Shown here piece by piece: positions 4,292-42,813 of a stretch of DNA of 64,000 nucleotides. The notes under the pieces are model-generated. The model was not told where the DNA came from and did no database searches. It saw only the letters and a list, made by a program, of their open reading frames with translations. Source of the stretch: Acidimicrobiia bacterium (lineage in GTDB: Bacteria; Actinomycetota; Acidimicrobiia; IMCC26256; JAMXLJ01). Position 1 is the first letter of the stretch. Each line of letters begins with the position of its first letter. The position numbers and the translations under genes were made by a program. The DNA lies in contig DASRES010000031.1 of assembly GCA_035651955.1 (NCBI GenBank), positions 12,184-76,183 of the forward strand, in the 5' to 3' direction.

Positions 4292-4677
4292 GACGGCGCG
4301 AACTCGTACGTCACGACGGTGTCACCGTCCTCGGTCTCGTGGAGCGGCGCGAGGCGCATCGCCATCGGCAACCCGAACGTGAACCCGTCGACCGGGTGAC
4401 TCAGTCGCGTGATCACACGCAGGCCCTCGGGCAGCTCGACGACTCCGAACCCGAACGGCACGTCGCCGAGGTACCCGGGCGGCGGCGCGTTCACCGCGGT
4501 CCAGCCCCACAACGTGCCGCGGCCGTCGAGCACGACCTCCTCGATCGCATCGTCCGAGCACTGCGAGCACGTGGACGCGCGCGGGAACTGGAACGCGCCG
4601 CAACCGGTGCAGCGGCCGGCCAGGAGCCGGGGTGGGTCGTCGAGCGTGAACAGCCCGTCCCGTACGGGGACCGTCAT
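4288..4677 (-). CDS. DUF35 zinc-ribbon/OB-fold protein (thiolase partner)
   Basis: Four-Cys ribbon CTGCGAFQFPRASTCSQC followed by an OB-fold region. ATG at 4677 lies 1 nt after the stop of the CoA-transferase gene. The rest of the 357-aa ORF is out-of-frame junk. Confidence 0.85.
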   Translation of the reverse strand: MTVPVRDGLFTLDDPPRLLAGRCTGCGAFQFPRASTCSQCSDDAIEEVVLDGRGTLWGWTAVNAPPPGYLGDVPFGFGVVELPEGLRVITRLSHPVDGFTFGLPMAMRLAPLHETEDGDTVVTYEFAPS

Positions 4678-4678
4678 G

Positions 4679-15001: not shown

Positions 15002-15025
15002 CAGCGGCACCGCGCGAGCGGCAGC

Positions 15026-16150
15026 GTGCGGACAACGGCACGACTACGCATGGATCGACGCGGTCGCCGCGGCGTCGGGTTCGCCGCCGCGGCGACCGTC
15101 GCGCTCGTTGCCGTGCTCGCGGGTTGCGCGTACACCAACCCGGTCTCCGCACCACCCGATCCGGCCGGCCTGCCCGACCCGTTCGTCGTCCTCGTCAACG
15201 GCGTGTACCACGCGTACACGACGAACGGTCCCGACGTGGACCACCCGACGATGAACATCCAGCACGTCACGTCGACCGACCTCGTGCACTGGAGCGCGCC
15301 GACGGACGTCCTGCCGACGCTGCCGTCGTGGGCGGTCGCCGGGCGGACGTGGGCGCCGAGCGTCCTCGTGCGCGGCGGCGCGTCGCCGACCTACGTCCTG
15401 TACTTCACGGCCCAGCCCGCGGACCGCGCCACGAACGGCACGCACTGCATCGGCACGGCCGTCGCGTCGACACCGGACGGGCCGTTCACGCCGCGTGCGA
15501 CGCCGCTCGTGTGCCAGACGGACCACAACGGTGCGATCGATCCGAGCGCGTTCGTCGATCCCGTGAACGGGCAGGCGTTCCTGTTCTGGAAGAGCGAGGA
15601 CAACCTGTTCGTTCCCGCGCGCCCGACGATCATCTGGGCGCAACCGCTCTCCGCCGACGGACTGTCGTTCGCGAGCGGCTCGGCGCCGTCGGCGGTCATG
15701 ACGGCGTCCTCGAACTGGGAGCACGGTCAGATCGAGGCCCCGGCGATGACGTACGACGCGGCGAGTGGTCGCTACGTCGTCTTCTACGCCGGGCACTACT
15801 GGTACAACGAGCCCGCGTACGGCACCGGGTGGGCGGTCTGCACACGCACCGCGACGGGGTTCGCCGCCGGGTCCTGCACCCGAGGCCAGTCCACGCAGTG
15901 GATCGCGTCGACGGCGCACGCGTGTGCGCCCGCGGGCGTGGAGGTGTTCTCCGACAACGCCGGCTACCGCTGGCTCGCGTACCACGCGTACGTGGGACCG
16001 GCCGATCCGTCGACGGGGAAGTGCACCGGCGCGCGGAAGCTCCGCATCGACAAGCTCTGCTTCGCCAACGGCGTCCCACGGACGAACGCGCCGTCGACGG
16101 GCGCGCAGACCCTCACGCGGACCGCGAACTGCGCGACCGACATCCCGTAG
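15026..16150 (+). CDS. Glycoside hydrolase family 43-like lipoprotein
   Basis: Lipobox LAGC after a basic/hydrophobic leader. GH43 propeller motifs DPFVV, WAPSV, DPSAFVD, IEAPAM. Alternative ATG start at 15050. Confidence 0.8.
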   Translation: MRTTARLRMDRRGRRGVGFAAAATVALVAVLAGCAYTNPVSAPPDPAGLPDPFVVLVNGVYHAYTTNGPDVDHPTMNIQHVTSTDLVHWSAPTDVLPTLPSWAVAGRTWAPSVLVRGGASPTYVLYFTAQPADRATNGTHCIGTAVASTPDGPFTPRATPLVCQTDHNGAIDPSAFVDPVNGQAFLFWKSEDNLFVPARPTIIWAQPLSADGLSFASGSAPSAVMTASSNWEHGQIEAPAMTYDAASGRYVVFYAGHYWYNEPAYGTGWAVCTRTATGFAAGSCTRGQSTQWIASTAHACAPAGVEVFSDNAGYRWLAYHAYVGPADPSTGKCTGARKLRIDKLCFANGVPRTNAPSTGAQTLTRTANCATDIP

Positions 16151-16179
16151 CGGCCTCCGCCGCGCGCGGCCGGCCGAAC

Positions 16180-16195
16180 CTGACTACCGTGTCAG
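16180..16195. promoter_or_regulatory. Palindrome CTGAC-TACCGT-GTCAG (site 4)
   Basis: Exact CTGAC-N6-GTCAG, 39-54 nt upstream of the P450 ATG. Confidence 0.55.
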
Positions 16196-16233
16196 GGTCA
16201 CGCGGATCGTCACGCGCAGGGGGTCCCGCTCCG

Positions 16234-17424
16234 ATGACGTACGACATCGAGACCGAGTACCGCGAGATCGACTTCTTCACGGGGCAGCCGTACGGGATGT
16301 GGGAGCGGGCCCGCTCGGAGTGCCCCGTGATCCGTCACGAGTCGTCTGCGTTCGACCATCGCCCGAACTACCAGATCACCCGCTTCGACGACTGCGAGAA
16401 GGTGCTGCGCGACTGGGAGACGTTCTCGTCGTCGATCAACGGGGAGCAGATCGGTCAGTACATGGGCGAGCTGATCCTCGCGATGAACGGCAAGGAGCAC
16501 CGCCAGTACCGCAACCTCGTCGCCAAGGCGTTCCGCGCGTCGGTGCTGGAGCGCTGGGACGCCGAGCTCGTCGCGCCAGTCGTCAACGAGCTGCTCGACC
16601 GGATCGCGCCACTCGGTCGCGCCGACCTCGTGCGCGACCTGACGACCAAGTACCCGGTCCAGGTGATCTGCGGCATCGTCGGTGTGCCGCTCGCGGACCA
16701 CGAGCAGTTCCACCGGTGGGCCGAGGAGATCAACACGGGACCGCTGCACCCCGACGTCGGCATGGCCGCGTCGCGTGCGATGCGCGCCTACCTCGAGCCG
16801 ATCGTCGAGGACCGGCGGCGCAACCCCGGCGGCGACCTCATCAGCGAGCTCGTGACCGCGGAGATCGACGGCGAGCGTCTCACCGACGAGAAGATCTACG
16901 GGTTCCTCCGCCTGCTCCTGCCCGCGGGTGCGGAGACGACGTTCCGCGTGCTCGGCAACTGCCTCACCGCGCTGCTGACGCACACCGACGTGATGGCGCG
17001 TGTGCGCGACGACCGCGACCTGATCCCCGCGGTCATCGAGGAGACGTTGCGCTGGGAGACGTCCGTGACGATGGTGTCGCGGGTGACGACGCACGACGTC
17101 GAGGTCGCGGGTTGCCCCATCCCGGGCGGGTCGCCCGTCAACGTCGTCACCGCGTCCGCGAACCACGACGAGGACCGTTGGCCGGATGCCGACGAGTGGC
17201 GCATCGACCGCGAGCCGAAGCCGCACCTCGCGTTCGGGACCGGTCCGCACCAGTGCCTCGGGATGCACCTCGCCCGGCTCGAGCTGCGCGTCGCGCTCAA
17301 CGCCGTGCTCGACCGGCTCCCGAACCTCCGGCTCGACCCCGACCGGCCGGCGCCCAGCATCCAGGGCCTCGCGTTCCGCGGTCCGGCGGCGCTCGACGTC
17401 CTGTTCGACCCGGTTCCCGCGTAA
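16234..17424 (+). CDS. Cytochrome P450
   Basis: Haem-thiolate loop FGTGPHQCLGMHLA and ExxR (ETLRWE). ATG 16234 lies within a 1003-aa composite ORF. Confidence 0.95.
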   Translation: MTYDIETEYREIDFFTGQPYGMWERARSECPVIRHESSAFDHRPNYQITRFDDCEKVLRDWETFSSSINGEQIGQYMGELILAMNGKEHRQYRNLVAKAFRASVLERWDAELVAPVVNELLDRIAPLGRADLVRDLTTKYPVQVICGIVGVPLADHEQFHRWAEEINTGPLHPDVGMAASRAMRAYLEPIVEDRRRNPGGDLISELVTAEIDGERLTDEKIYGFLRLLLPAGAETTFRVLGNCLTALLTHTDVMARVRDDRDLIPAVIEETLRWETSVTMVSRVTTHDVEVAGCPIPGGSPVNVVTASANHDEDRWPDADEWRIDREPKPHLAFGTGPHQCLGMHLARLELRVALNAVLDRLPNLRLDPDRPAPSIQGLAFRGPAALDVLFDPVPA

Positions 17425-17433
17425 CGCGCGCGT

Positions 17434-18186
17434 TCAGCCGGCCGGCAGAGCGTTGACGAGCACGGACCCCGCGTGCGAGCGCGCGCGGACGGAGCGCGAA
17501 GCGTTCGGGTCGGTCGCGACGCCGATGCGCACGTCGCCGCCGTCCGTGCGCGCGTCCACGCGGTACGGACCACCGGGCAGCACGACCTCGACCGCGCCCG
17601 CGTTGCTCGTCGCGTCGACGTCGTCGGGCACGCTGGCGAACACCAGCCGGACGTGGCCGGCGTCGGTGTGCGCCTTCACGCACCCGCTCCGCGCGCCGTC
17701 CACCTCGATCGAGCCTGCGTCGCTGTGCAGCTGCAGCGCGCCCGCGCAACCGTTGACCGCGATGCGGCCCGCGTTGCTGGCGAGGTCGACGTCGCCGCGC
17801 ACGCCGTCGACCGCGAGCGGGCCTGCGGCCGTCCGTGCACGGACACCGGTGCCGGCGGGGACGACCAGCTCGTAGTCGATCCACCACCAGCCCTCCAGCG
17901 GGCCGCGCGGTGGGGTGACCGAGATCTGCAGCGTCGTCCCGGCGCGCGTCTCCCGCGTCTGCGGCCGCCGTCGTCCGTAGCGCATGTGCCGATGCACGGT
18001 GAGGCGGGCGCCGTCGTGCGCCACGACGCGGACGCTGCCGGCGTCGATCTCGACGTCGACGTGCTCGATGCCGTCGAACGTCAGCTCGTCGTCGGCGACG
18101 CGCCGTGTGTTGCGCGCGACGACGACCGCGACGAGCGCGCCGGTGAACAGCACGAACACGACGAGCGCCGCGATCGCCGCTGCCAC
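17434..18186 (-). CDS. Membrane-anchored DUF4097-like (putative adhesin fold) protein
   Basis: N-terminal TM helix, then repeated beta-strand units (DAGSVRV, NAGRIAV, DAGSIEV, DAGHVRL, NAGAVEV, HAGSVLV). Confidence 0.7.
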   Translation of the reverse strand: MAAAIAALVVFVLFTGALVAVVVARNTRRVADDELTFDGIEHVDVEIDAGSVRVVAHDGARLTVHRHMRYGRRRPQTRETRAGTTLQISVTPPRGPLEGWWWIDYELVVPAGTGVRARTAAGPLAVDGVRGDVDLASNAGRIAVNGCAGALQLHSDAGSIEVDGARSGCVKAHTDAGHVRLVFASVPDDVDATSNAGAVEVVLPGGPYRVDARTDGGDVRIGVATDPNASRSVRARSHAGSVLVNALPAG

Positions 18187-18219
18187 CTGCCCCGCCCCTG
18201 CCCGCTCCGCCTGCGCCCG

Positions 18220-18942
18220 TCAGGACCCGTCGCCGAACATCGTCAGCCACTGGTCGAGCGTCTTGAGCCGGAACACGTAGTTGCGCCGGCGCGTCTCGCC
18301 CATCGTCGCGGACGGTTCGGGTGAGTAGAGGTGACCGGGGTAGAGGACGGTGTCGTCGGGGATCTTGGCGAGCCGCTGCGTGAGGCTCTCGTACATCTGC
18401 GTCGCGTCGCCGCCGGGCAGATCGGTGCGACCGCAGCCGTCGAGGAAGAGCGTGTCGCCCGCGACGAGCCGGCCGTCGAGCAGGAAGCACTGGCTTCCCG
18501 GCGTGTGGCCGGGCGTGTGCAGGAACGTGATCGGGATCGCGCCGACCTCGAGCACGTCGCCGCCGTCGTGCAGCACGAGGTCGCTGTCGGACGCGCCCGT
18601 CACGCGCTTCACGCCCCACGCCTCGTCCCGCTGGACGTGGACGGGCACGCCGCCGTCGATCGCCAGCAGCTCGCGCACGCCCTGGATCGGGTAGCCCATC
18701 AGGTCGCCGCCGACGTGGTCCGGATGCCAGTGCGTGGCGAGCGCGCCCGTCACGCGCATGCCGTCGCCCCGTACGACGTCGACGAGCTCCGCGACGCCGT
18801 ACGCCGGGTCGACGAGCACCGCGTCGCCCGTCTCGCGGTCGCCGATGACGTACGCGAAGTTGACCATCTGGCGCGCGATCGGGTCGTCGCGCGCGAAGTC
18901 GCGTCCCGCGAGCAGCTGCCGGAAATAGAGACGCTCGGTCAC
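18220..18942 (-). CDS. MBL-fold metallo-hydrolase (glyoxalase II-like)
   Basis: HWHPDHVGG metal-binding motif and TPGHTPGS. GTG start. Confidence 0.85.
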   Translation of the reverse strand: MTERLYFRQLLAGRDFARDDPIARQMVNFAYVIGDRETGDAVLVDPAYGVAELVDVVRGDGMRVTGALATHWHPDHVGGDLMGYPIQGVRELLAIDGGVPVHVQRDEAWGVKRVTGASDSDLVLHDGGDVLEVGAIPITFLHTPGHTPGSQCFLLDGRLVAGDTLFLDGCGRTDLPGGDATQMYESLTQRLAKIPDDTVLYPGHLYSPEPSATMGETRRRNYVFRLKTLDQWLTMFGDGS

Positions 18943-18975
18943 CGAACCGATGCTATCGGCGCCCGCCCGCCGCCT

Positions 18976-19021
18976 CCGTTGGGACGTTTTGTCGTCGCTA
19001 CGCCGAGAAACGTCCCAACGC
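18976..19021 (-). repeat. 46-nt hairpin repeat, copy 2 (inverted orientation)
   Basis: On the minus strand it reads GCGTTGGGACGTTTCTCGGCGTAGCGACGACAAAACGTCCCAACGG. Starts 17 nt after the alcohol dehydrogenase stop. About 40 of 46 positions identical to copy 1 by hand alignment with one gap per arm, with a compensatory T:A to A:T swap in the stem. Confidence 0.7.
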
Positions 19022-19038
19022 GGCTGGGGTTCGGGCAG

Positions 19039-20274
19039 TCACCGGAAGTCGAAGGCGCACTTGATCGCGCCGGTGTCGTGCTGACGGGCGATCGTCGTCC
19101 AGGCGTCGCGCCAGTCGTCGAGGCGGAACGTGTGCGTCAGCATCGCGCTCACGTCGACGCGCCCCGAGCGGACGAGGTCGAGGTAGTGCTCGATCGCGTG
19201 CTTGCGAACGCCTTCCACCTCTTCGACACCGAACGCGTTCGACCCGACGATGCGCGCCTCCTTGAAGTACAGCGGCGACCACTCGAACCGGCCGGGCGCG
19301 TTCACACCGCTCACGACGATCGACCCGCGGGTCGCCATCACGCGCAACGCCAGCTCGATCGTCTTCGGCGAGCCGATCGTGTCGTAGACGACGTCGACGA
19401 ATCCGGGGTGCGTCACCGGCAGGCCCGTCCACGGCGCGCGCAGGACACCGCCCGACCACTCCGCGAGCGCGACGACGACGGCCTCGTCGCCCTGCTCGGA
19501 GTCGACGACGAGCGCGCCGAGCTTCCGCGCGAGCGCCTGTTGCGCGGGATGCCGGACGACCGCGGCGACGTCGACCGTCGGGTACAGCGCGCGCAGGATC
19601 GCGATCGCGGTCGTGCCGAGCGCGCCGCCGCCCCACACGACGGCCTTCCCGCCCGTCGGCGGCGGGTTGCGCACGATCCCGTGCAGCGACACCGCGAACG
19701 GGTCCGCGAGGACGGCGACCTCGTCGGGTACGTCGTCGGGCACGGGGATCGCCATGGAATCGTGCGCGGGGAGCTTCTCGGCGAACCCGCCCGTCGCGTC
19801 GGACGAGTTCCCGGTGTGGATGCCCTGCGCGAGCCGGCCGTCGTGGAAGTGCCAGCACTGCGAGTAGTCGCCCTCCTGGCACGGCGGGCACATCGGCGTG
19901 ATGCCACGCGGCCCGCACGACAGCCAGCAGTTCAGCAACACGCGCTGACCGCGCTCGACGCCGCGCGCCTCCGGTCCCGTCTCGACGACGTCCGCCACGA
20001 CCTCGTGCCCCAGGACTTGGGGGAACGAGATGAACGCGGTCATCGACATGTCGGACGCGTCGCCGCCCGTGTCCATCAGGACCTGCTTCGTGTCGGATCC
20101 GCAGATCCCGGTCATGCGCGTCTGCAGGACGACCCAGTCGGGACCGAGCAGCTGCGGATCGGGGACGTCCTGCAGCGCCATCGGCGTGGCGGCGAGGTTG
20201 CGCAGCAGCGGGTCGGCGTCCGCGGGCGGTGCCTCGACGGGCCCGGGGTCGACGCCGAACACCAGTGCCTTCAT
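19039..20274 (-). CDS. Zinc-dependent alcohol dehydrogenase (MDR family)
   Basis: GICGSD, GHEVV and the Rossmann motif GGGALG. Confidence 0.9.
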   Translation of the reverse strand: MKALVFGVDPGPVEAPPADADPLLRNLAATPMALQDVPDPQLLGPDWVVLQTRMTGICGSDTKQVLMDTGGDASDMSMTAFISFPQVLGHEVVADVVETGPEARGVERGQRVLLNCWLSCGPRGITPMCPPCQEGDYSQCWHFHDGRLAQGIHTGNSSDATGGFAEKLPAHDSMAIPVPDDVPDEVAVLADPFAVSLHGIVRNPPPTGGKAVVWGGGALGTTAIAILRALYPTVDVAAVVRHPAQQALARKLGALVVDSEQGDEAVVVALAEWSGGVLRAPWTGLPVTHPGFVDVVYDTIGSPKTIELALRVMATRGSIVVSGVNAPGRFEWSPLYFKEARIVGSNAFGVEEVEGVRKHAIEHYLDLVRSGRVDVSAMLTHTFRLDDWRDAWTTIARQHDTGAIKCAFDFR

Positions 20275-20294
20275 TCGCTGATCCCCCCCTTTTG

Positions 20295-20310
20295 CTGACA
20301 GCGGCGTCAG
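20295..20310. promoter_or_regulatory. Palindrome CTGAC-AGCGGC-GTCAG (site 5)
   Basis: Exact CTGAC-N6-GTCAG in the divergent region between the alcohol dehydrogenase and the ApbE module. Confidence 0.55.
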
Positions 20311-20393
20311 CCTACCGAACGCTGCACGACGATTTACCTGCTCTTGCAGCCCCGTCGCGCTGCCTCTCAGGCTGCCGGTCGATCCTTGCCGGC

Positions 20394-20720
20394 ATGCAAC
20401 GACACACGACGGCGTCTCGCGACGCCGGCATGCGAAGGGTCCGCCGCACCACGAAGTGGCTCGCCGGTGGTGCCGCCGGCCTGACAGCTCTGTTCACCGC
20501 GTTCACGCTGCCGCACAGGAGCTCGACGACGACAACGTCGAACACGTCGAACGGCTCGACGTCGTCGGGCTCGGTGTCGTCGAGCAGCGGGAGCAGCAAC
20601 AGCAGCAACAGCCGCAGCTCGTCGTCCTCGTCGTCGTCCTCGTCCGACAACGGGCTCTCGTCGAGCAGCGGCGTCTCCTCGTCCTCGCGGCAGCCGGTGA
20701 CGCACTCGGGGGCGTCGTGA
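20394..20720 (+). CDS. Membrane-anchored poly-Ser/Thr low-complexity protein ending in SGAS
   Basis: ATG 20394, or ATG 20430 giving MRRVRRTTKWLAGGAAGLTALFTAFTL. About 65 aa of S/T/N/G follow, and the C-terminus is RQPVTHSGAS. GC3 is near 100% in this frame. The stop overlaps the next start (GTGA). Confidence 0.55.
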   Translation: MQRHTTASRDAGMRRVRRTTKWLAGGAAGLTALFTAFTLPHRSSTTTTSNTSNGSTSSGSVSSSSGSSNSSNSRSSSSSSSSSSDNGLSSSSGVSSSSRQPVTHSGAS

Positions 20721-21652
20721 AGGAGCGGACGGAGTCGGCGAGCTTCCGGGCGCTCGGGACGACCGCGACCGTCGTCGTCGACGGCGGCGACCTCGCCGTC
20801 GCGCGCGAGATCCTCGCGGACGAGGTCGGCGCGCTCGACCGCGCGTGCAGCCGCTTCCGTGACGACTCCGAGCTCAGCGCGGTCAACCGCGCGGCCGGCC
20901 AGCCCGTCGTCGTCGGGCCGATGCTGCTCGGCGCGGTGGAGGTCGCCCTGCGCGCCGCGCGCATGACGGACGGCCGTGTCGATCCCACGGTCGGGCGCGC
21001 GCTGCAGGTCCTCGGCTACGACCGCACCTTCGACGAGCTCCCGTCGGACCGGCCGCGCTCCGTCGTGTGGGCGCGCCGCGTTCCCGGCTGGCAGGCGATC
21101 ACGATCGACCGGCGCGCCCGTACCCTGCGCGTCCCGTCGGGCGTGCAGCTCGACCTCGGCGCGACGGCCAAGGCCTGGGCGGCCGACCGTGCCGCGGCGA
21201 GGATCGCGCTCAAGCTCGAGCGCCCCGTCCTCGTGAGCCTCGGTGGCGACGTGAGCGCGGCCGGTCCCACCCGTCCGGGCGGGTGGCCGGTGCGCGTCAC
21301 CGACGACCACGCCGCGGGCCGCGACGCGCCCGGCGAGACCGTCGACCTCCACGGAGGTGGGCTTGCGACCTCGGGCACGACCGTACGTCGGTGGTCGATG
21401 GGCGGGGAGGAGCACCACCACGTCGTCGACCCGACGACGGGTCGCAGCGCGCGCACGCCGTACCGGACGGTCAGCGTCGCGGCCGGATCGTGCGTCGACG
21501 CCAACGTCGCGACGACCGCCGCGCTCGTCGCCGGCGAGGACGGGCCCGCCTGGGTCGCGCGACACGGGCTCCCCGCCCGCTTCGTCGCGCACGACGGCAC
21601 GGTCACGCGCGTCGGCGGCTGGCCGGAACCGGCATTGCCGGTGGCGTCGTGA
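20717..21652 (+). CDS. apbE: FAD:protein FMN transferase (ApbE family)
   Basis: ApbE motifs FRALGTTATVVV and LDLGATAKAWAAD. GTG start overlaps the upstream stop. No signal peptide with this start. Confidence 0.85.
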   Translation: MKERTESASFRALGTTATVVVDGGDLAVAREILADEVGALDRACSRFRDDSELSAVNRAAGQPVVVGPMLLGAVEVALRAARMTDGRVDPTVGRALQVLGYDRTFDELPSDRPRSVVWARRVPGWQAITIDRRARTLRVPSGVQLDLGATAKAWAADRAAARIALKLERPVLVSLGGDVSAAGPTRPGGWPVRVTDDHAAGRDAPGETVDLHGGGLATSGTTVRRWSMGGEEHHHVVDPTTGRSARTPYRTVSVAAGSCVDANVATTAALVAGEDGPAWVARHGLPARFVAHDGTVTRVGGWPEPALPVAS

Positions 21653-22410
21653 GCACCGTGCTCGCGGCAACTGCCGGTTCGCCGCTCTGGTACTTCGCGC
21701 GCGCGACCGGGATGGTCGCGCTCGTCCTGCTCACCGTCACGGTGGTGCTCGGCGTGGTCACGAGCGTCCGCTGGAGCTCGCGCCGCTGGCCGCGGTTCGT
21801 CGTGGAGTACGTCCACCGCGACGTCACGCTGCTCGTGATGACCTTCATCGTGCTGCACGTGGCGACGGTCGTCCTCGACGGCTACGCGCCGATCGGATGG
21901 GCGGCCGCGGTCGTGCCGTTCTCGTCGCCGTACCGCGCGCTCTGGCTCGGTCTGGGCGCGGTCGCGTTCGACCTGCTGCTCGCAGTCGGCGCGACGAGCT
22001 GGTTGCGCCACCGCGTCGGCTTCCGCGTCTGGCGCTTCGTGCACTGGTTCGCGTACGGCGCGTGGGGCTTCTCCGTCGTGCACGGCCTCGCGACCGGCAC
22101 CGACACCCAACGGGGTTGGGCGCTCTTCGTGAACGCGGCATGCGTCGCGGCCGTCCTCGCCGCGGTCTGGTGGCGGCTGGCCGTCGGCTGGCGCGAGGAC
22201 CGGGCGGGGATCAGGACGGCGCTCCTCGGTATGACGTTCGTCCTGCCGCTCGCGCTGCTCGGGTGGCTGCGCGCCGGCCCGCTCGCGACGGGATGGGCGC
22301 GGCGGTCGGGAACGCCGGCGAGCGTGCTCGAGAAGACGACGCAGGGGCAGACGACGACATCGACGACCAACGCCCCGGTGAACGAGGACGACGGAGGATT
22401 CGAGCGATGA
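21649..22410 (+). CDS. Ferric-reductase-like transmembrane di-haem protein (MsrQ/YedZ-like)
   Basis: About six hydrophobic helices with two His pairs spaced 13-14 residues apart (HRDVTLLVMTFIVLH, HWFAYGAWGFSVVH). GTGA overlap with the apbE stop. Confidence 0.8.
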   Translation: MSTVLAATAGSPLWYFARATGMVALVLLTVTVVLGVVTSVRWSSRRWPRFVVEYVHRDVTLLVMTFIVLHVATVVLDGYAPIGWAAAVVPFSSPYRALWLGLGAVAFDLLLAVGATSWLRHRVGFRVWRFVHWFAYGAWGFSVVHGLATGTDTQRGWALFVNAACVAAVLAAVWWRLAVGWREDRAGIRTALLGMTFVLPLALLGWLRAGPLATGWARRSGTPASVLEKTTQGQTTTSTTNAPVNEDDGGFER

Positions 22411-23717
22411 CCGCGGTCCAGGACGAACGGCTGCGCGGCGGGTACGCGCCCGACGGGCTGCCGCGGCTGCTCGTCGGCGAACGCGACGGCACCGGAAGCC
22501 TCGAGGAGCACCTGCGCGTGCACGGTGCGCTCCCGCCGCGGATCGACCCGAGGTCGATGCTCGACGAGCTCGACCGCTCGGGCCTCGCGGGCCGTGGCGG
22601 CGCGTCGTTCCCGACCGCGAGGAAGTGGCGCGCGGTCGCGGACCGACGGGGCCGTGCCGTGGTCGTCGCGAACGGGTGCGAGGGCGAGCCGGCGAGCCAG
22701 AAGGACGCGCTGCTGCTCGCCCGCTTCCCGCACCTCGTGCTGGACGGGCTCGCCGTCGCGGCCGCGACCGTCGGCGCGCGCGACGCGGTGCTCGCCGTCG
22801 AGCGGACGCGGCCCGAGCTCGTGACCGCCGTGACCCGCGCGATCTCCGAGCGCGCGGCGACCGGCCGTGACCGCGTCGTGCCGCGCGTCGTCGGTGTCCC
22901 GGCCCGGTACGTCGCGGGCGAGGAGTCCGCGCTCGTCCACTGGTTGAACGGTGGCGACGCCAAGCCGACCAACGTCCCGCCCCGCCCGTTCGAGCGCGGT
23001 GTGTCCGGCCGGCCCACGCTCGTGCAGAACGTCGAGACGCTCGCGCACGTCGCGCTCGTCGCGCGTCATGGCGGCGACTGGTTCCGCGCGGTCGGCACGC
23101 CCGCCGAGCCGGGGTCGATCCTCGTGACGATCTCGGGCGCGGTCGCGTCTCCGGGCGTCTGCGAGGTCGAGCTCGGCACACCGCTCGGGCACGTGATCTC
23201 GCGCGCGGGTGGCGCGACCTCGCCCTTGTCGGCCGTCCTCGTCGGCGGGTACTTCGGCACCTGGCTGCCGGCGACGTCGCTCGACGAGGCCGTTCTCGCG
23301 AACACGGAGCTGCGCGCCCGCGGCGGGGGGATCGGCTGCGGCGTCGTCGTCGCGCTCCCCGGGACGGCGTGCGGGCTCGTCGAAGCCGCGCGCGTGGCGC
23401 GCTACCTTGCCGACGAGACGGCGGGCCAGTGTGGTCCCTGCGTCAACGGGCTCGCCGCGGTCGCGGGTGCGGTCGAGGAGATCGCGTATCGGAAGGCGAC
23501 GCCTGAGCGGGTGCGGCAGATCGACCGTTGGACGCGGATGATCGCGGACCGCGGCGCGTGCCATCACCCCGACGGTGCGATCCGCTTCGTGCGCAGCGCC
23601 CTCGACGCGTTCCGCGACGAGCTCGACATGCACGCCCGCGGCCGTTGCACCGGCTCGGCCACAGCGCCGGTGCTGCCCGTGCCGTCCGGGCAGTCGCGCG
23701 ACCGGGGTTGGAGGTGA
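22407..23717 (+). CDS. NuoF-like NAD(P)H-binding flavoprotein with 4Fe-4S site
   Basis: GRGGASFPTARKW (NADH/FMN site of the complex I 51-kDa family), ANGCEGEPASQKD, ETAGQCGPCVNG plus CHHPDG (Fe-S cysteines). ATGA overlap with the upstream stop. Confidence 0.85.
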   Translation: MTAVQDERLRGGYAPDGLPRLLVGERDGTGSLEEHLRVHGALPPRIDPRSMLDELDRSGLAGRGGASFPTARKWRAVADRRGRAVVVANGCEGEPASQKDALLLARFPHLVLDGLAVAAATVGARDAVLAVERTRPELVTAVTRAISERAATGRDRVVPRVVGVPARYVAGEESALVHWLNGGDAKPTNVPPRPFERGVSGRPTLVQNVETLAHVALVARHGGDWFRAVGTPAEPGSILVTISGAVASPGVCEVELGTPLGHVISRAGGATSPLSAVLVGGYFGTWLPATSLDEAVLANTELRARGGGIGCGVVVALPGTACGLVEAARVARYLADETAGQCGPCVNGLAAVAGAVEEIAYRKATPERVRQIDRWTRMIADRGACHHPDGAIRFVRSALDAFRDELDMHARGRCTGSATAPVLPVPSGQSRDRGWR

Positions 23718-23932
23718 GCACGTCGATGGCTCGCACGCTGCGCCTCGAGGTCGACATCATCCGCTGCGACGGGCACGGCATCTGTGCCGAGATGTTCCCC
23801 GAGCGCGTCTCCCTCGACGACTGGGGGTACCCGATCGTCGACGGTGCCGAGATCCCGCAGCGCTGCCTCGCCGACGCCCGCCGGGCGGTCCACGCGTGCC
23901 CGGCGCTCGCCCTCCGCCTGGTCGAGGAGTAG
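23714..23932 (+). CDS. Small ferredoxin
   Basis: CDGHGICAEMFPE ... ACPALA single-cluster ferredoxin pattern. GTG 23714 overlaps the upstream stop (GTGA); ATG 23726 is the alternative. Confidence 0.75.
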   Translation: MSTSMARTLRLEVDIIRCDGHGICAEMFPERVSLDDWGYPIVDGAEIPQRCLADARRAVHACPALALRLVEE

Positions 23933-23997
23933 CGGGACGAAGGGAGGAACGGGAACGTTTCCTCAACTCGGGCCCCGAACCGGCCGAGTAGTCGTCC

Positions 23998-25437
23998 GTG
24001 GCCGAACCCATGCGGACGCCGCCGACGCCCACGCCGTCGGTCATCGAGCTGGTCGACCCGGCCGGCAACCCGTACCTGCAGGGCGTCTTCGCGCCCGTCG
24101 CCGAGGAGCTCGACGCGGACGCGCTCCAGGTCGAGGGGCACGTCCCCACCGAGCTGCGCGGGAGCTATCTGCGCAACGGCCCCAACCCGCAGTTCACGCC
24201 CCTCGGCAGCTACACGTATCCCTTCGACGGCGACGGCATGATCCACATGGTCACGTTCGAGGGGGGTCACGTCCGCTACCGCAACCGGTGGGTGGCGACC
24301 CGCGGGCTCGTCGCCGAGCGCCGCGCCGGGCACGCCCTGTACGGCGGCACGTTCACGCCGATCGTGCCCGACCCCGCCCGCATCGGCCCCGACGGCGACC
24401 CCAACCCGTTCAAGAACTGGGCGAACACCAACGTCGTCCGCCACTGCGGGAAGGTGCTCGCGCTGTACGAGGGCGGCCTGCCCTACGAGCTGACGCCCGC
24501 CCTCGAGACGGTCGGCGAGGTCGACTACGAGGGCCTGCTCCCCACCGCGATGTGCGCGCACCCGAAGCTCGACCCGATCTGGGACGAGCTGTGCTTCTTC
24601 CGCTACGACGTCGTGCCCCCGTACCTCGTGTACGGCGTCGTCGGGCCCAAGGGGCGCATCACGCGCACCGAGCCGATCGACCTGCCCGACCCGGTGATGA
24701 TCCACGACTTCGTCGTCACCGATCAGCACGTCGTCTTCTTCGACAGCCCCGCGGTGTTCGACCTCGACGCCATGACGCACGGTGGCCCCGTCCTGGCGTG
24801 GCGCGAGAACCGCGGGACGCGCATCGGCGTGATGAACCGTGAGGGCGACCCGCGCGTCGTGTGGATCCCGGTCGAGGACTGCTACGCGATGCACTTCCTC
24901 AACGGCTACACGGAGGGCGAGACCGTCGTCGTCGACTACGTGTACCGCCGCCGGCTCGACCTGGTCGGCTCGTCGCCGGACAACGCGCCCCGCATGCACC
25001 GCGCCGTGATCGACCTGAGCCGACGCTCCGTGCGCGACGAGCTCGTCGACCACCGCACCGTGGAGTTCCCGCGCATCGACGATCGCCGCACCGGGTTGCA
25101 CCACCGTGTCGGCTACGCAGCCGCCGTGACGCATCCCGACGGCGTGAAGGGCGGGTCGTTCGACACGATCGTCCGCTACGACGTCGACAGCGGCACGTCG
25201 TCCGAGCACCGGTTCCCGCCCGGCGTCGTCGTGGGCGAGCCCGTCTTCGCGCCCCGGCCCGGCGGCTGGGACGAGGACGACGGCTGGCTGCTCGTGTTCG
25301 CGTACGACCTCGCGCGTGACCGCAGCGACCTCGTGATCCTCGACGCCGCGCGCGTGGCGTCGTCGCCGGTGGCCGTCGTGCACCTGCCGGCACGCGTTCC
25401 CGCCGGTCTGCACGGCAACTGGTTCCCCGCGGAGTAG
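23998..25437 (+). CDS. Carotenoid/apocarotenoid cleavage dioxygenase family protein
   Basis: LRNGPNPQF, conserved His contexts (HMVTFEGG, CAHPKLDP, IHDFVVT, AMHFLNGY) and C-terminal GLHGNWFP. Confidence 0.9.
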   Translation: MAEPMRTPPTPTPSVIELVDPAGNPYLQGVFAPVAEELDADALQVEGHVPTELRGSYLRNGPNPQFTPLGSYTYPFDGDGMIHMVTFEGGHVRYRNRWVATRGLVAERRAGHALYGGTFTPIVPDPARIGPDGDPNPFKNWANTNVVRHCGKVLALYEGGLPYELTPALETVGEVDYEGLLPTAMCAHPKLDPIWDELCFFRYDVVPPYLVYGVVGPKGRITRTEPIDLPDPVMIHDFVVTDQHVVFFDSPAVFDLDAMTHGGPVLAWRENRGTRIGVMNREGDPRVVWIPVEDCYAMHFLNGYTEGETVVVDYVYRRRLDLVGSSPDNAPRMHRAVIDLSRRSVRDELVDHRTVEFPRIDDRRTGLHHRVGYAAAVTHPDGVKGGSFDTIVRYDVDSGTSSEHRFPPGVVVGEPVFAPRPGGWDEDDGWLLVFAYDLARDRSDLVILDAARVASSPVAVVHLPARVPAGLHGNWFPAE

Positions 25438-25493
25438 GGCGACCCGTCTCGCGCGGCTGGCGGCGGCGCGGGAGGGGGCGCGACGCTGCCCCG

Positions 25494-26705
25494 GTGGCCG
25501 CCGCGGCCCCCGTCGACGAAGACCGCTCCACCCGCGCGCACGCGACTGCGGCCGTGCTCGGCTACCAGCCCGCGCTCGACGGCATCCGCGCGGTCGCGAT
25601 CGTCATGGTCCTGCTGTTCCACACGATCTACCGCAACAAGGCGCTCTTCGCCGGCGGGTACCTGGGCGTCGACGCGTTCTTCGTGCTCAGCGGGTTCCTG
25701 ATCACGACGTTGCTGCTGCAGGAGGCGCGCCGCTGGCGCCACGTGAGCCTGCGGAGGTTCTACGTGCGTCGCGCGCTGCGCCTGCTGCCGCTCGCCGGCG
25801 CGCTCGCGCTCACCGGTGCGCTCGTGAACCTGACGACGAGCCGCGGCTTCGCGGAACGCCCGTGGCCGGAGGGCGTCGCCAGCGTCCTCTTCTACTTCGC
25901 GAACTGGATGCACCTCTGGCAGCCCAGCGCGCTCGGGTTCATGGGCCACGCCTGGTCACTCGCGATCGAGGAGCAGTTCTACCTGCTGTGGCCGCCCTTG
26001 CTCGTGCTCCTGCTGTGGCGCCGCGTCGGGCGGTGGCCCCTCCTCCTCATCGCGGTCGCGCTCGCGTGCGGGTCCGCGGCGCTGCGCGCGTACCGCTGGT
26101 ACACCGTGACGCACCCTGGGCACGCCATGACCGCGTCCGCGTTCGGGCGGTTCGTCCTGGGCCAGCGGGAGTTCAAGGCCGGCGACCACATCTACTACTC
26201 GTCGTTCACACACGCCGACGGGCTGCTGATCGGCTGCGCGCTCGCCGTGCTCCTCGTCTCGTTCCCGAGCCTGCATCGCGTCGTGCCCCGCTTCGGTGTC
26301 GCCATCGCGACGGCCGGTGTCGTCGCGGCAGGCGTCGTCGTGGCGAAGGCCGGCCCCGCGGGCATCGGGTCGTTCCTGTCCTACTGGGGACTGCCCGTGT
26401 TCGAGCTCGGCGTCGCCGCGGTCACGGCGGCCGTCGTCCTGCGACCCCGTCTGCTGCTCGGCCGCGCGCTCGGGAACCCGGTCGCGGTGTGGGTCGGCCG
26501 GCGGTCGTACGGGCTGTACGTCATCCACGGCGCGGTGTTCACGCTGCTGGCCCACGTCTTCCACACCGACGGCGTGCTCATCCCGGCGATGTGGGGGCTC
26601 ACGTTCGCGTTGGCCGCGCTGTCGTTCCGGTTCCTGGAGACGCCGATCCTGCGCCTGAAGGACCGGTTCTCGACCCGCCCCGTCACGCCGTCCCTCGCGA
26701 CCTGA
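25494..26705 (+). CDS. Acyltransferase family 3 membrane protein (paralog A)
   Basis: LDGIRAVAIVMVLLFH, GVDAFFVLSGFLIT, WSLAIEEQFYLLWP; multi-pass membrane protein. Confidence 0.85.
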   Translation: MAAAAPVDEDRSTRAHATAAVLGYQPALDGIRAVAIVMVLLFHTIYRNKALFAGGYLGVDAFFVLSGFLITTLLLQEARRWRHVSLRRFYVRRALRLLPLAGALALTGALVNLTTSRGFAERPWPEGVASVLFYFANWMHLWQPSALGFMGHAWSLAIEEQFYLLWPPLLVLLLWRRVGRWPLLLIAVALACGSAALRAYRWYTVTHPGHAMTASAFGRFVLGQREFKAGDHIYYSSFTHADGLLIGCALAVLLVSFPSLHRVVPRFGVAIATAGVVAAGVVVAKAGPAGIGSFLSYWGLPVFELGVAAVTAAVVLRPRLLLGRALGNPVAVWVGRRSYGLYVIHGAVFTLLAHVFHTDGVLIPAMWGLTFALAALSFRFLETPILRLKDRFSTRPVTPSLAT

Positions 26706-26722
26706 GCGACCGAGCCCGTCGG

Positions 26723-27541
26723 TCAGGCGCCGCTTCCGCTCGCCTCGCGGCTCGCTCGCTCCATGGCGGCCATGCCCGCGAGGAAGCCGTCGGGGTCGTT
26801 CGTCTTGCCGATGACGATGTCGCGCTGCGCGAGGCCGCCGGGGAACTCGGGCGGGGCGAAGTACTCGAACCCGTCGTCCTCGATCGCGGCGACGATGCTC
26901 GCGGCGCACTCGTCGGCCGGGACGAACGGCCCGTCGTAGAGCGCGGGGTCGTTGCCGGGCTGGTCCCAGATCTCGGTGGCGATCGGCCCCGGGAGGACGA
27001 GCTTCACGTCGACGCCCGTGCCGTCGAGATCGATGCGCATCACCTCGCTCCAGCCGCACAACGCGAACTTCGACGCGCAGTACGCAGCCTCGTGCGCGAT
27101 GCCGATCCGGCCGCCCATGCTCGACACGTTGACGACGAGGCCGCGGCCGCGGTCGAGCATGCGGGGGAGCACCGCGAGCGTCATCGCGACGGGCGAGCGG
27201 AAGTTCACCTGCATCACCGTGTCGACCTGGTCGAGGTCGAGACGGGGGACCGGTGTGCGCTTCGGGATGGCGGCGTTGTTGACGAGGCAGTCGAGCCCGC
27301 CGAACGCGTCCCACGCCTCGAGGACGACCTGCTGCGCGCGCTCGACGTCGCCGAGATCCGCGGCCCAGGAGGTGGAACCGGGCGTGTGCGCGCGGCACTG
27401 CTCGACGACCTGCTCGAGCCGTTCGGCGCGGCGCGCGACGACGCCGACCGTCGCACCCTTGGCGGCCAGCTGCGGTGCGAGCGCGGCGCCGATGCCCGAC
27501 GACGCGCCCGTCACGAGGAACCTCGCCCCGTCGATCTGCAT
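26723..27541 (-). CDS. Short-chain dehydrogenase/reductase
   Basis: TGASSGIGAALA cofactor motif and catalytic YCASKFAL (YxxxK). Confidence 0.9.
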   Translation of the reverse strand: MQIDGARFLVTGASSGIGAALAPQLAAKGATVGVVARRAERLEQVVEQCRAHTPGSTSWAADLGDVERAQQVVLEAWDAFGGLDCLVNNAAIPKRTPVPRLDLDQVDTVMQVNFRSPVAMTLAVLPRMLDRGRGLVVNVSSMGGRIGIAHEAAYCASKFALCGWSEVMRIDLDGTGVDVKLVLPGPIATEIWDQPGNDPALYDGPFVPADECAASIVAAIEDDGFEYFAPPEFPGGLAQRDIVIGKTNDPDGFLAGMAAMERASREASGSGA

Positions 27542-27550
27542 GCCCGCATC

Positions 27551-27566
27551 ATGACACCGGCGTCAG
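27551..27566. promoter_or_regulatory. Variant palindrome ATGAC-ACCGGC-GTCAG (site 6, one mismatch)
   Basis: TGAC-N6-GTCA core kept. Lies 10-25 nt upstream of the SDR ATG in a divergent intergenic region. Confidence 0.4.
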
Positions 27567-27618
27567 GTCGGCGCCTCCGGCCTGAACGCGCGCACGCGTC
27601 GATCGCGGCGCTCGCGGC

Positions 27619-28848
27619 GTGCGAGGCTGGCGGCGGATGTCCCGGGACGTGCACGACGGGTCGCGCGACGCGGTCGACCGGAGGACGCGCGCGTCCGTGC
27701 TCGGCTACCAGCCCGCGCTGGACGGCATCCGGTGCATCGCCATCCTCATGGTGCTCGTCTTCCACACCGACTGGCACGGCAAGACGCTCTTCCAGGCGGG
27801 ATATCTCGGGGTCGACCTCTTCTTCGTGCTGAGCGGGTTCCTGATCACGGTGCTCCTGCTGCAGGAGGCCAGGAGGTGGCGCCGGATCAGCCTCCGGAAC
27901 TTCTACGTGCGGCGCGCGCTGCGGCTCCTCCCCCTCGCGGGGCTGCTCGCGCTCGTGGGCGCGATCGTGAACCGCACGACGTCGGTCGGCTTCGCCGGGC
28001 GGCCCGAGTGGCAGGGCGTCGCCAGCGTCGCGCTCTACTTCGCGAACTGGATGCACCTGTGGCGACCGAACGCGCTCGGGTTCATGGGCCACGCGTGGTC
28101 GCTCGCGATCGAGGAGCAGTTCTACCTGCTCTGGCCGCCCGTGCTCGTGCTCCTGCTCTGGCGGCGCGCGTCACGGTGGATCCTGCTCGCCGTCCCCGTC
28201 GCGCTCGCGCTCGGCTCGGCCGGGTACCGGGCCTACCAGTGGTACGCGGTGAACCACTTCCCGGCGAGGATCCGCGGATTCCTGCCCGCGATGCTCGTCC
28301 AGAACGGCAAGGAGTTCCACGTCTCGGAGCGCATCTACTACAGCTCCGTCACCCACGCGGACGGGCTGCTGATCGGCTGCGCGCTCGCGGTGCTGCTCGT
28401 CTCGTTCCCGGTCGTGCTCCGGGTCACGCCGAAGGTCGCCGCTCTCGCCGCCGGAGCGGGCACGATCGCGATCCTGCTCGTGATCCACGGCGCGAACGCG
28501 CAGCCGCGCACGATCTTCCTCCCGGAGTGGGGCCTGCTCGTGTTCGAGGTCGCGGCTGCCGCCATCACCGGCGCGCTCGTCCTGCACCCGGGCATCCGGA
28601 TGGCACGGGTCCTGTCACACCGCGCCGCGGTCTGGGTCGGGCGCCGGTCCTACGGCGTCTACGTCATCCACGGCGTCGTGTTCTCGCTGCTGAGCCACGT
28701 GATCACCCACGAGTCGGTCCTCGTCCCGACGATGTGGGCGGTCACGTTCGCGCTCGCCGCGCTCTCGTACCGCTACGTCGAAGGTCCGATCCTCCGCCTC
28801 AAGGATCGGTTCTCGTCGCCGCGTGTGTCACCGTCGCTCGCGACGTAG
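27619..28848 (+). CDS. Acyltransferase family 3 membrane protein (paralog B)
   Basis: Same motifs as paralog A, with long near-identical stretches (e.g. VLGYQPALDGIR, FYVRRALRLLPLAG, FMGHAWSLAIEEQFYLLWPP, C-terminal PSLAT). ATG 27637 is an alternative start. Confidence 0.85.
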   Translation: MRGWRRMSRDVHDGSRDAVDRRTRASVLGYQPALDGIRCIAILMVLVFHTDWHGKTLFQAGYLGVDLFFVLSGFLITVLLLQEARRWRRISLRNFYVRRALRLLPLAGLLALVGAIVNRTTSVGFAGRPEWQGVASVALYFANWMHLWRPNALGFMGHAWSLAIEEQFYLLWPPVLVLLLWRRASRWILLAVPVALALGSAGYRAYQWYAVNHFPARIRGFLPAMLVQNGKEFHVSERIYYSSVTHADGLLIGCALAVLLVSFPVVLRVTPKVAALAAGAGTIAILLVIHGANAQPRTIFLPEWGLLVFEVAAAAITGALVLHPGIRMARVLSHRAAVWVGRRSYGVYVIHGVVFSLLSHVITHESVLVPTMWAVTFALAALSYRYVEGPILRLKDRFSSPRVSPSLAT

Positions 28849-42681: not shown

Positions 42682-42813
42682 GGCACCATCATGGCGTTCG
42701 GTTCGGGTGTCGATGCTGTAAGCTGACGCAACTCTGCACAGGGCCAGCGTCGTCCCGGGCAGGTCCCCCCGTTGGATGCGCCGCACCACGGCGTGTTCGC
42801 CCGGAGCTACGTC

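Follow-up and report, generated by a model that had tools for sequence, protein, structure and literature searches.

Small anchored proteins with a C-terminal [ST]G[GA][ST] motif as candidate substrates of a signal-less ApbE in a redox operon of an Acidimicrobiia bacterium

Here we describe a five-gene operon within a stretch of 64,000 nt from an Acidimicrobiia bacterium (assembly GCA_035651955.1, contig DASRES010000031.1, positions 12,184 to 76,183 of the forward strand; hereafter the window, with position 1 as its first letter), in which the gene of a small anchored protein, ORF1 (open reading frame 1), is followed by that of ApbE, the transferase that moves flavin mononucleotide (FMN) from flavin adenine dinucleotide (FAD) onto proteins. 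Reading the window together with its ORF listing gave five genes on the same strand between 20394 and 23932:

20394..20720, + strand, ORF1, 108 amino acids; small anchored protein with a disordered tail, proposed as a domain-less ApbE substrate
20717..21652, + strand, ApbE (FAD:protein FMN transferase), 311 amino acids; without signal peptide; PF02424
21649..22410, + strand, Fre, a ferric-reductase/MsrQ-like membrane protein, 253 amino acids; PF01794
22407..23717, + strand, NuoF-like NAD(P)H-binding FMN/Fe-S protein, 436 amino acids; PF01512, PF10531, PF10589
23714..23932, + strand, single-cluster small ferredoxin, start at GTG 23714 or ATG 23726; PF13459

The number and order of the genes and the start of ORF1 at ATG 20394 are as given in the first-pass annotation, which had been made from the letters of the window alone, and the 4-nt overlaps it listed are all present (GTGA 20717-20720, GTGA 21649-21652, ATGA 22407-22410 and GTGA 23714-23717). 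The fourth of them hinges on the start of the ferredoxin, for which ATG 23726 is equally good, with GGAGG 8-12 nt upstream and a remaining gap of 8 nt, so that an unbroken series of four overlaps holds only if GTG 23714 is used. ORF1 can be considered coding, since its GC content at third codon positions (GC3) is 0.92 in its own frame vs 0.40 and 0.77 in the other two, matching the neighbour genes at 0.93-0.96. A consensus scan of 20200-24100 for promoters and terminators found none, as expected at 72% GC. ORF1 itself falls into four parts:

20418..20459, + strand, basic N-terminal motif R9-D10-A-G-M-R-R-V-R-R-T-T-K-W22, from family alignments
20457..20510, + strand, hydrophobic helix W22-L39 (WLAGGAAGLTALFTAFTL), a membrane anchor or uncleaved signal
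20511..20705, + strand, low-complexity Ser/Thr/Asn/Gly linker P40-H104, from direct reading
20706..20717, + strand, C-terminal S105-G106-A107-S108 followed by the stop, with S108 as the proposed FMN phosphoester site

The start is placed at ATG 20394 and not at ATG 20430, because the Arg-Asp pair that is invariant in the family (R9, D10) lies upstream of 20430, and the C-terminus reads RQPVTHSGAS-stop. AlphaFold2, run with the family alignment, returned a single helix (residues 4-37), inside which the hydrophobic segment falls, and coil for the remainder, at a mean predicted local distance difference test score of 55. ORF1 has no Pfam match (best E = 0.51) and belongs to no NCBIfam family. The absence of a recognisable FMN_bind domain, noted at first pass, was borne out for all five operon proteins at E <= 1 in Pfam and NCBIfam.

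Pfam profile searches likewise supported the identities that had been assigned to the other four proteins. The ApbE looks, from its sequence, both active and cytoplasmic. It matches PF02424 at 6.8e-53, residues 13-287 covering profile positions 1-264 of 266, and has thirteen relatives of solved structure (best 1vrm at 3e-27). The motifs LDLGATAKA, ATSG, HHxVDPxTG and CVDANxAxT, which we take to be those of the FAD/metal active site, are invariant or nearly so in 28 relatives and are present in the window protein. With the domain beginning at residue 13 there is no room for a signal peptide, and the enzyme should therefore be cytoplasmic; in at least 12 related loci an in-frame stop is found 6-25 codons upstream of the conserved F-x-ALGT of ApbE. 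An N-terminal lipoprotein or secretion signal is typical of ApbEs, if not universal. Cytosolic ApbEs are documented, for example in Klebsiella (PMC12052999).

Fre matches Ferric_reduct PF01794 at 7.7e-8 (32.9 bits, above the cutoff of 28) and no NCBIfam family. It consists of five core helices, a sixth helix and a short Thr-rich tail, and carries H55/H69 and H131/H144 as the two His pairs that mark the ferric reductase domain superfamily of two-haem membrane cytochromes, with spacings of 13 and 12 residues on two transmembrane helices. All four His are invariant in 27 sequences and would be enough for two bis-His haems. Also invariant in 27 sequences are the loop residues D76, P89, Y94, R95 and W98, and the positive-inside rule places this loop on the outside. 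About 40% of the orthologous Fre proteins have, after the sixth helix and a conserved GWA[RK]RAGTPxxLL motif, a further beta-rich domain of some 120 residues (loci L007, L010 at L010:1412-2500, L014, L016, L018-L020, L023, L033, L038 and others), while the window Fre (22200-22407) keeps the sixth helix and the motif (GWARRSGTPASVLE) and then ends in a Thr-rich tail of 30 residues. By the positive-inside rule the additional domain is predicted to be extracellular and could there serve as a docking site for the flavinylated tail proposed below. The idea that it is a cryptic flavin-binding domain was rejected, as it has no Pfam match and no significant sequence match in the PDB (best 0.019, a PKD-like domain), and is absent from the window Fre.

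The protein encoded at 22407-23717 is, judged by its profile scores, NuoF-like and not NuoF: it matches Complex1_51K at 1.3e-35, SLBB at 2e-8 and NADH_4Fe-4S at 2.1e-18, and reaches 1e-64 and 218.5 bits against TIGR01959, far under the cutoff of 558.65. The NADH/FMN fold is nevertheless retained. The canonical N3 cluster motif of NuoF is C-x2-C-x2-C, with four Cys in total, of which the first reads Ala here (AGQCGPC). In the region of residues 322-414, C322, C342, C345, C385, C414 and H409 are conserved in 65 orthologs; C322 could substitute as cluster ligand, and the conserved C322, C414 and H409 suggest altered cluster ligation or an additional metal site. The ferredoxin matches Fer4_15 (PF13459) at 3.9e-11 and has the three-Cys pattern C-x2-H-x2-C...C-P, conserved in 65 orthologs.

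The closest relative of the ApbE (87% identity) is encoded on a metagenome contig of 4.5 Mb with the identical five genes and neighbours, and its small ORF ends in QQPVTHSGAS; an ApbE of 63% identity from a metagenome-assembled genome (MAG) of the Actinomycetes is preceded by a different-looking ORF of 105 residues ending in VTSGGS. A scan based on the ApbE alignment, with one genome per species, yielded 80 loci, total counts referring to 83 distinct loci. They span the Acidimicrobiia, Thermoleophilia (Solirubrobacterales, Gaiellales), Actinomycetes (Streptosporangiaceae, Pseudonocardiaceae, Dermatophilaceae), Dormibacterota and Chloroflexota, and in about 65 of the 80 the genes of ApbE, Fre, the NuoF-like protein and the ferredoxin (Fdx) stand in identical order. 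An ORF ending in [ST]G[GAVS][ST] was found at -19 to +29 nt from the estimated ApbE start in 72 of the 83 loci and, where Fre and the NuoF-like protein are present as well, in 65 of 69, with two more ending in SAAS or SSGS. Among 1373 other coding-like ORFs of the same loci (GC3 > 0.85, at least 60 residues) not a single one ends in [ST]G[GA][ST], and comparison of these two counts, 72/83 vs 0/1373, excludes chance.

The C-terminal logo of the family (n = 69) shows how narrowly the end of the protein is defined. The last residue, position 0, is Ser in 66 and Thr in three sequences; position -1 is Gly in 55, Ala in 13 and Val in one; position -2 is Gly in all 69; and position -3 is Ser in 65 and Thr in four. 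Further upstream, position -4 is mostly Val (32), Thr (17) or Ser (8), position -5 Val (36) or Ala (22), and position -7 is Pro in 34, so that the C-terminus takes the form h-h-[ST]-G-[GA]-[ST]-COOH. The tail that carries it drifts in sequence and in length, from 31 to 151 residues with a median of 70, and is composed of Ser (21%), Ala (17%), Pro (13%), Thr (12%) and Gly (11%), hydrophobic or charged residues being nearly absent. An LQPPxQAP-like tail motif occurs in 23 of the 69 members and is missing from the window ORF1. At the N-terminus the consensus is RDxxLRRhxRxTRW, with the Arg invariant and the Asp in at least 90% of sequences, followed by one Ala/Gly-rich hydrophobic helix per member, which is the best hydropathy window in each and is often directly followed by P-G-[KRH]. 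Its N-terminal flank holds on average 5.0 Lys and Arg vs 1.7 in the C-terminal flank and is the richer one in 65 of 67 sequences, for which the positive-inside rule consequently predicts the N-terminus inside and the tail outside. The conserved Arg pair followed by h-[ST]-R, about 7 residues ahead of the hydrophobic core, is a poor fit to the twin-arginine (Tat) signal consensus S/T-R-R-x-F-L-K.

The family could be followed well beyond the loci found through ApbE. A profile of the N-terminal 45 columns alone retrieved 74 proteins of about 80 residues, all unnamed or 'hypothetical', and among 60 that were read nearly all, namely the full-length ones, end in QVTSGAS, VVSGAS or VVSGGS; two were checked in their contigs, and in both a 4-nt overlap is followed by genes of ApbE, a Ferric_reduct protein, a NuoF-like protein and Fer4_15. 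An exhaustive profile search of 1.84 billion cluster representatives gave 141 clusters with 138 new representatives, 95 of which end in the motif and four more in SGSS, the remainder being mostly truncated or frameshifted calls. Conservation of the terminal motif in orthologs, on which the first-pass annotation had made its proposal depend, is thus found both in these representatives and in the 69 aligned sequences, all of which keep positions -3, -2 and 0. Representative P0209 has the motif followed by five further residues and locus L031 has an internal and a terminal copy, which fits recognition of the motif and not of a free carboxylate. Literature searches found no earlier description of the small protein family. 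In loci L018, L037 and several MAG loci of the MFD series the small gene is split by a frameshift, with the N-terminal part and the ...VVSGG[ST] end in different frames; these splits, in long-read MAGs, are probably homopolymer errors in the repetitive linker and not pseudogenes.

ApbE moves FMN onto the last Ser or Thr of D-x-x-[ST]-G-A-[ST] (PMC12052999, PMC9400968), within which [ST]GA[ST] is the target core (PMC8238504, PMC12052999) and served as the criterion that named DUF2271 and DUF3570 as substrates (PMC8238504). The SGAS of the window is such a core, and the family fixes its positions -3, -2 and 0 while the upstream tail drifts. In engineered form, the minimal flavin tag has seven residues and performs best at the end of a protein, flavinylation is complete on disordered N or C termini, and exchange of its Asp for Ala has a minor effect only (PMC12052999, PMC9400968); for FMN_red proteins, unstructured C-terminal extensions with motif-like sequences were proposed as sites (PMC11334425). 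None of the known substrate domains (FMN_bind PF04205, DUF2271, DUF3570, NqrB/RnfD) is matched at E <= 1 by ORF1 or by 24 family members, which have no Pfam or NCBIfam match of any kind at that threshold. A canonical substrate hidden nearby was also looked for and rejected: D..[ST]GA[ST] was searched as a regular expression in the coding-like ORFs of the 80 loci (+-6 kb) and in the window and gave three chance matches only, one of them in a glutamate synthase (window 42727-47358). The terminal SGAS, which the first-pass annotation had named as the only candidate, thus keeps that position in the operon and its relatives.

With this gene content, a motif conserved throughout the family, its tight linkage to ApbE and no other candidate substrate, we propose, with a probability of roughly 0.6, that ORF1 is the substrate of the operon's ApbE within a chain leading from NAD(P)H to the outside of the cell, and that it represents an undescribed, domain-less substrate family. 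In this model, the last Ser or Thr, S108 in the window, would receive FMN from FAD through the ApbE to which ORF1 is translationally coupled, and the lack of a signal peptide on that enzyme should place the reaction in the cytoplasm. Unfolded and already carrying its flavin, the tail would next pass through the membrane, the N-terminal helix remaining as an anchor beside the haem protein. Electrons would pass from NAD(P)H to the FMN and Fe-S cluster of the NuoF-like protein, on to the small ferredoxin, through the inner and then the outer haem b of the MsrQ-like protein to the tethered FMN outside, and finally to an external acceptor. We infer flavinylation, export after modification, electron path and acceptor, the path being drawn from the parts of the operon and from the published MsrQ-like model.

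The order of events matters for the flexible extracytoplasmic leash that had been suggested at first pass. Its outward orientation is supported by the predicted topology of 65 of 67 sequences; the ApbE without signal peptide, however, makes an extra export step necessary. Flavinylation inside, followed by export of the unfolded chain, is the simplest way to reconcile a signal-less ApbE with an anchor whose N-terminus is in and whose tail is out. This leads to a more specific and tentative picture, which we regard as possible but favour less than even odds would warrant, of a natural 'flavin tag': anchored disordered proteins whose sole functional group would be an FMN on the C-terminal Ser or Thr, exported unfolded after cytoplasmic flavinylation by a signal-less ApbE. 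If it is true, the loss of the folded domain and the loss of the ApbE signal peptide would be two sides of one change, because a substrate modified in the cytoplasm can pass the membrane only if it is unfolded; FAD would not need to be exported, and monoderm soil bacteria would possess an extracellular leashed flavin.

Several points weigh against the assignment of ORF1 as an ApbE substrate on an outward tail. The flavin on ORF1 is a prediction from sequence. The motif of ORF1 lacks the Asp at -6, where the window has Val and the family mostly Val (20), Pro (16) or Ala (10) (n = 69), and most members have Gly in place of the canonical Ala at -1, a variant undocumented as a substrate. A sub-branch (P0294, P0300, P0313, P0320, P0331) ends in ...SPSPGGGG, ...SHSGG, ...SPTGG or ...SHGGG while keeping the N-terminal motif and the helix of the family. 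The signal-less ApbE is in tension with an outward tail, there being no citable precedent for export of a tail that is already flavinylated, and an FMN without a protein pocket would behave as free flavin and auto-oxidise in air. The helix of ORF1 is only moderately hydrophobic (mean Kyte-Doolittle 1.26) and in many relatives ends in an A-x-A-like sequence before FPGK, so that it could be a cleaved signal and not an anchor. Lastly, clustering of flanking ORFs found no acceptor gene conserved in the operon or beside it.

The compartment problem would disappear in the main alternative, in which the flavinylated tail stays in the cytoplasm, with its FMN at the inner face of the membrane as a link from the ferredoxin or NuoF-like protein to the inner haem. 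Signal-less ApbE, FAD and substrate would then share one compartment and nothing would have to be exported, and the stretch right after the helix in the Solirubrobacterales is indeed rich in Lys and Arg. Ferric-reductase-domain proteins, moreover, normally take their electrons from a flavin at the cytoplasmic face, and the tethered FMN would take the role of the FAD in NOX and STEAP, or of the FMN in MsrQ. This arrangement conflicts with the topology, in which 65 of 67 sequences have the N-terminus inside and not one is richer in Lys and Arg in the C-terminal flank, so that the tail is placed outside unless the helix does not span the membrane. In addition, ferredoxin can reduce haem directly, which makes a further cytoplasmic flavin look redundant, and in published MsrQ-like systems the flavinylated partner is extracytosolic (PMC8238504). 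We therefore consider a cytoplasmic tail unlikely.

Quite unlikely as well, in our estimation, is an ORF1 without any flavin that belongs to the haem protein as a small membrane subunit or helps to assemble it, in which case ApbE would serve a substrate elsewhere, flavin trafficking or a role as FAD pyrophosphatase. The absent Asp and the Gly in place of Ala in most members both suit this explanation, as does the Treponema protein Ftp, a relative of ApbE which is reported to hydrolyse FAD instead of transferring FMN (PMC4767422). Further, at seven loci (L012, L015, L017, L034 of the Streptosporangiaceae, L042, L075 and L076) a related ApbE of 52-59% identity occurs without the small ORF, Fre, the NuoF-like protein and the ferredoxin, and without an informative partner gene; at L034 a RicR-like gene still adjoins it. 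These loci look like remnants, or like a second use of that ApbE clade. What a non-flavinylated ORF1 leaves unexplained is the match of positions -3, -2 and 0 to the ApbE core in 69 of 69 sequences while the tail varies freely, and likewise its constant place directly before ApbE with no other motif carrier nearby.

For the helix, cleavage by signal peptidase after export would turn the flavinylated peptide into a diffusible or wall-retained flavin shuttle. Many relatives do show A-x-A-like ends followed by FPGK (for example ...VAASA|FPGKT or ...AAHA|FPGR), but the window sequence ...FTAFTLPHRSS has no such site, and a disposable signal peptide would not normally have such a long, conserved and basic N-region with its invariant Arg-Asp; we regard this as improbable. 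That ORF1 and ApbE form one protein, through a programmed frameshift or an annotation split, with ORF1 as anchor and linker of an exported ApbE, was rejected, since the openness of the ApbE frame across ORF1 in the window, where a call of 398 residues (P0001) begins at GTG 20456, and the five N-terminus::ApbE fusions among the 138 representatives are outweighed by a stop after the motif conserved in 72 loci, a spacing of -19 to +29 nt in different relative frames, a stop in the ApbE frame 6-25 codons ahead of the domain in at least 12 loci, and the GC3 values, which mark the ORF1 frame as coding across the overlap (0.92 vs 0.40 and 0.77). The fusions themselves, which the first-pass annotation had named as a finding that would speak against its proposal, are rare, and the inspected linkers (e.g. 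P0224) read as out-of-frame translation of the tail, suggesting that these calls are frameshift artefacts.

Returning to ORF1 as a flavinylated partner of the haem protein, the operon is best understood as a variant of the ApbE/MsrQ-like systems already known, and its placement among ApbE-associated flavinylated modules, proposed at first pass, is supported by the combination of apbE, PF01794 and a NuoF-like donor. In the MsrQ-like clusters of Meheust et al. (2021, eLife, PMC8238504), mostly from Actinobacteria, a two-haem PF01794 protein occurs with apbE, and 31 clusters have a NuoF-like (PF10589) cytosolic donor in place of the fused NAD-binding domain PF00175; electrons were proposed to flow from NAD(P)H via the haems to a flavinylated acceptor, normally an extracytosolic FMN-binding-domain protein (PMC8238504). 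Our operon shares the PF01794 gene next to apbE and the cytosolic NuoF-like donor (PF01512, PF10531, PF10589). In contrast, it contains no FMN_bind, DUF2271 or DUF3570 protein, and an extracytosolic FMN-binding-domain acceptor was found neither in the operon nor within +-6 kb of the 80 related loci; the candidate substrate is instead a disordered tail whose last residues are the motif, the ApbE lacks a signal peptide, and the operon includes a ferredoxin of its own. The new part is thus the domain-less, C-terminally tagged substrate family together with a signal-less ApbE.

Other comparisons bear on single features. The Flavin-tag was engineered in the laboratory from NqrC (F1 = GVDGLSGATLTS, with D-x-x-[ST]-G-A-[ST] as its minimal form; Tong et al. 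2021; PMC9400968; PMC12052999). Like our family, it places a short ApbE motif on an unstructured terminus without a flavin-binding fold, and it is modified in E. coli by a truncated, signal-less ApbE, whereas the members of the family occur in nature, have no Asp in the motif, mostly carry Gly at -1 and stop at precisely the residue proposed to be modified. ApbE-associated FMN_red proteins, mostly from Firmicutes, also have predicted sites on an unstructured C-terminal extension (Huang et al. 2024, mSystems, PMC11334425); there, however, the tethered FMN enters the flavin pocket of the folded flavoprotein that bears the extension, while the ORF1 polypeptide, a single helix in the AlphaFold2 model, has no folded domain. 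In Listeria, PplA/FmnB likewise provides a monoderm with a surface-anchored flavinylated protein fed by a membrane module and serving external acceptors, but PplA, as cited in PMC12052999 and PMC9973259, has folded FMN_bind domains and acquires its FMN outside the cell through an exported ApbE-like enzyme, the flavin being supplied by an energy-coupling factor (ECF) transporter, and the donor is a quinone-linked NDH-2, not a chain of NuoF, ferredoxin and haem. A cytoplasmic ApbE without signal peptide is shared with Klebsiella pneumoniae and its NADH:fumarate reductase, the substrate there being a soluble cytoplasmic FMN_bind enzyme, with no membrane haem protein and no anchored tail (PMC12052999).

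In every ApbE substrate described so far, the motif is part of a folded domain that surrounds the flavin. About 4% of genomes in the 2021 census retain an 'orphan' apbE (PMC8238504), so that some substrates are still to be identified, and the same census dropped ApbE and FMN_bind genes without signal peptides (PMC8238504), which is the likely reason why the family went unnoticed. Should ORF1 be flavinylated as proposed, it would stand for a new domain-less class of substrates in many uncultured soil lineages (Solirubrobacterales, Gaiellales, Acidimicrobiia, Streptosporangiaceae, Pseudonocardiaceae and Dormibacterota), the engineered Flavin-tag would have a natural precedent, and the question would arise how an unfolded tail bearing a cofactor crosses the membrane.

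A hint at physiology comes from regulators beside the operon in relatives. A response regulator of the OmpR type and a HAMP histidine kinase lie near it in 34 loci by ORF clustering and in 46-49 by tblastn, often divergently upstream (e.g. L003:3159-5302 and L039:3151-5450, both on the - strand, L072 and L024), and their best NCBIfam matches are the heavy-metal CztRS/Czc, SilRS and CopRS subfamilies, all under the curated cutoffs. Nine loci have a flanking gene of the CsoR family (L086-L088 at about 4300-4800 on the - strand, L028, L063, L066, L080, L049 and L034), divergently upstream in loci of the Streptosporangiaceae type, with the copper repressor RicR as best match (5.5e-43, 145 bits, under the cutoff of 175). 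In E. coli, the MsrQ operon adjoins hprRS, responds to oxidants as well as copper, and is induced by copper via CusSR (PMC9302797). Our family resembles E. coli MsrPQ in having an MsrQ-family operon near a copper-type two-component system in many relatives, and differs from it in having no MsrP molybdoenzyme partner and no evident quinone link. A role in copper or oxidant stress at the cell envelope is plausible by analogy, because of these regulators in relatives and the E. coli MsrQ precedent, and the regulators offer a starting condition for physiological work. The window has no CopRS-like or RicR-like regulator within its 64 kb.

The search for a conserved acceptor gene beside the operon by clustering of flanking ORFs returned, apart from regulators, only one further protein, and the idea of such a gene was rejected. 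The protein in question has about 200 residues, about four predicted transmembrane helices and conserved His (…HKASF.VW…H.L), lies near the operon in 7 loci (L021:51-803, L030:2879-3511, L065:2978-3568, L067, L068, L069 and L085:4309-4971) and has no Pfam match. It could be another membrane cytochrome.

In the window, the operon is flanked by unrelated genes, a divergent Zn-dependent alcohol dehydrogenase upstream and an RPE65-type carotenoid oxygenase downstream. The surroundings comprise the following genes:

ends at 17424, cytochrome P450 with the haem motif FGTGPHQCLG
17434-18186, - strand, DUF4097-like gene
18220-18942, - strand, MBL-fold hydrolase
19039-20274, - strand, Zn-dependent alcohol dehydrogenase
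23998-25437, RPE65 carotenoid oxygenase
25494-26705 and 27619-28848, two paralogous acyltransferase-3-like membrane proteins
26723-27541, - strand, short-chain dehydrogenase/reductase (SDR)

The segments 14413-20274 and 23998-28848 are syntenic with the closest relative except for the acyltransferases; a different gene follows the SDR there, so that the acyltransferases are not shown to be shared. Nothing evident connects the genes of both segments with the operon.

In high-GC genomes, annotation of the small gene is systematically wrong: an over-extended ApbE call runs over it, an antisense ORF takes its place, or it is left as 'hypothetical'. A profile of the family would correct many annotations. 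In the window, the protein database entry P0001 (20456-21652, + strand) reads across ORF1 in the wrong frame. For the closest relative, two gene callers disagree, one having an antisense ORF of 112 residues over the small gene and the other the correct gene.

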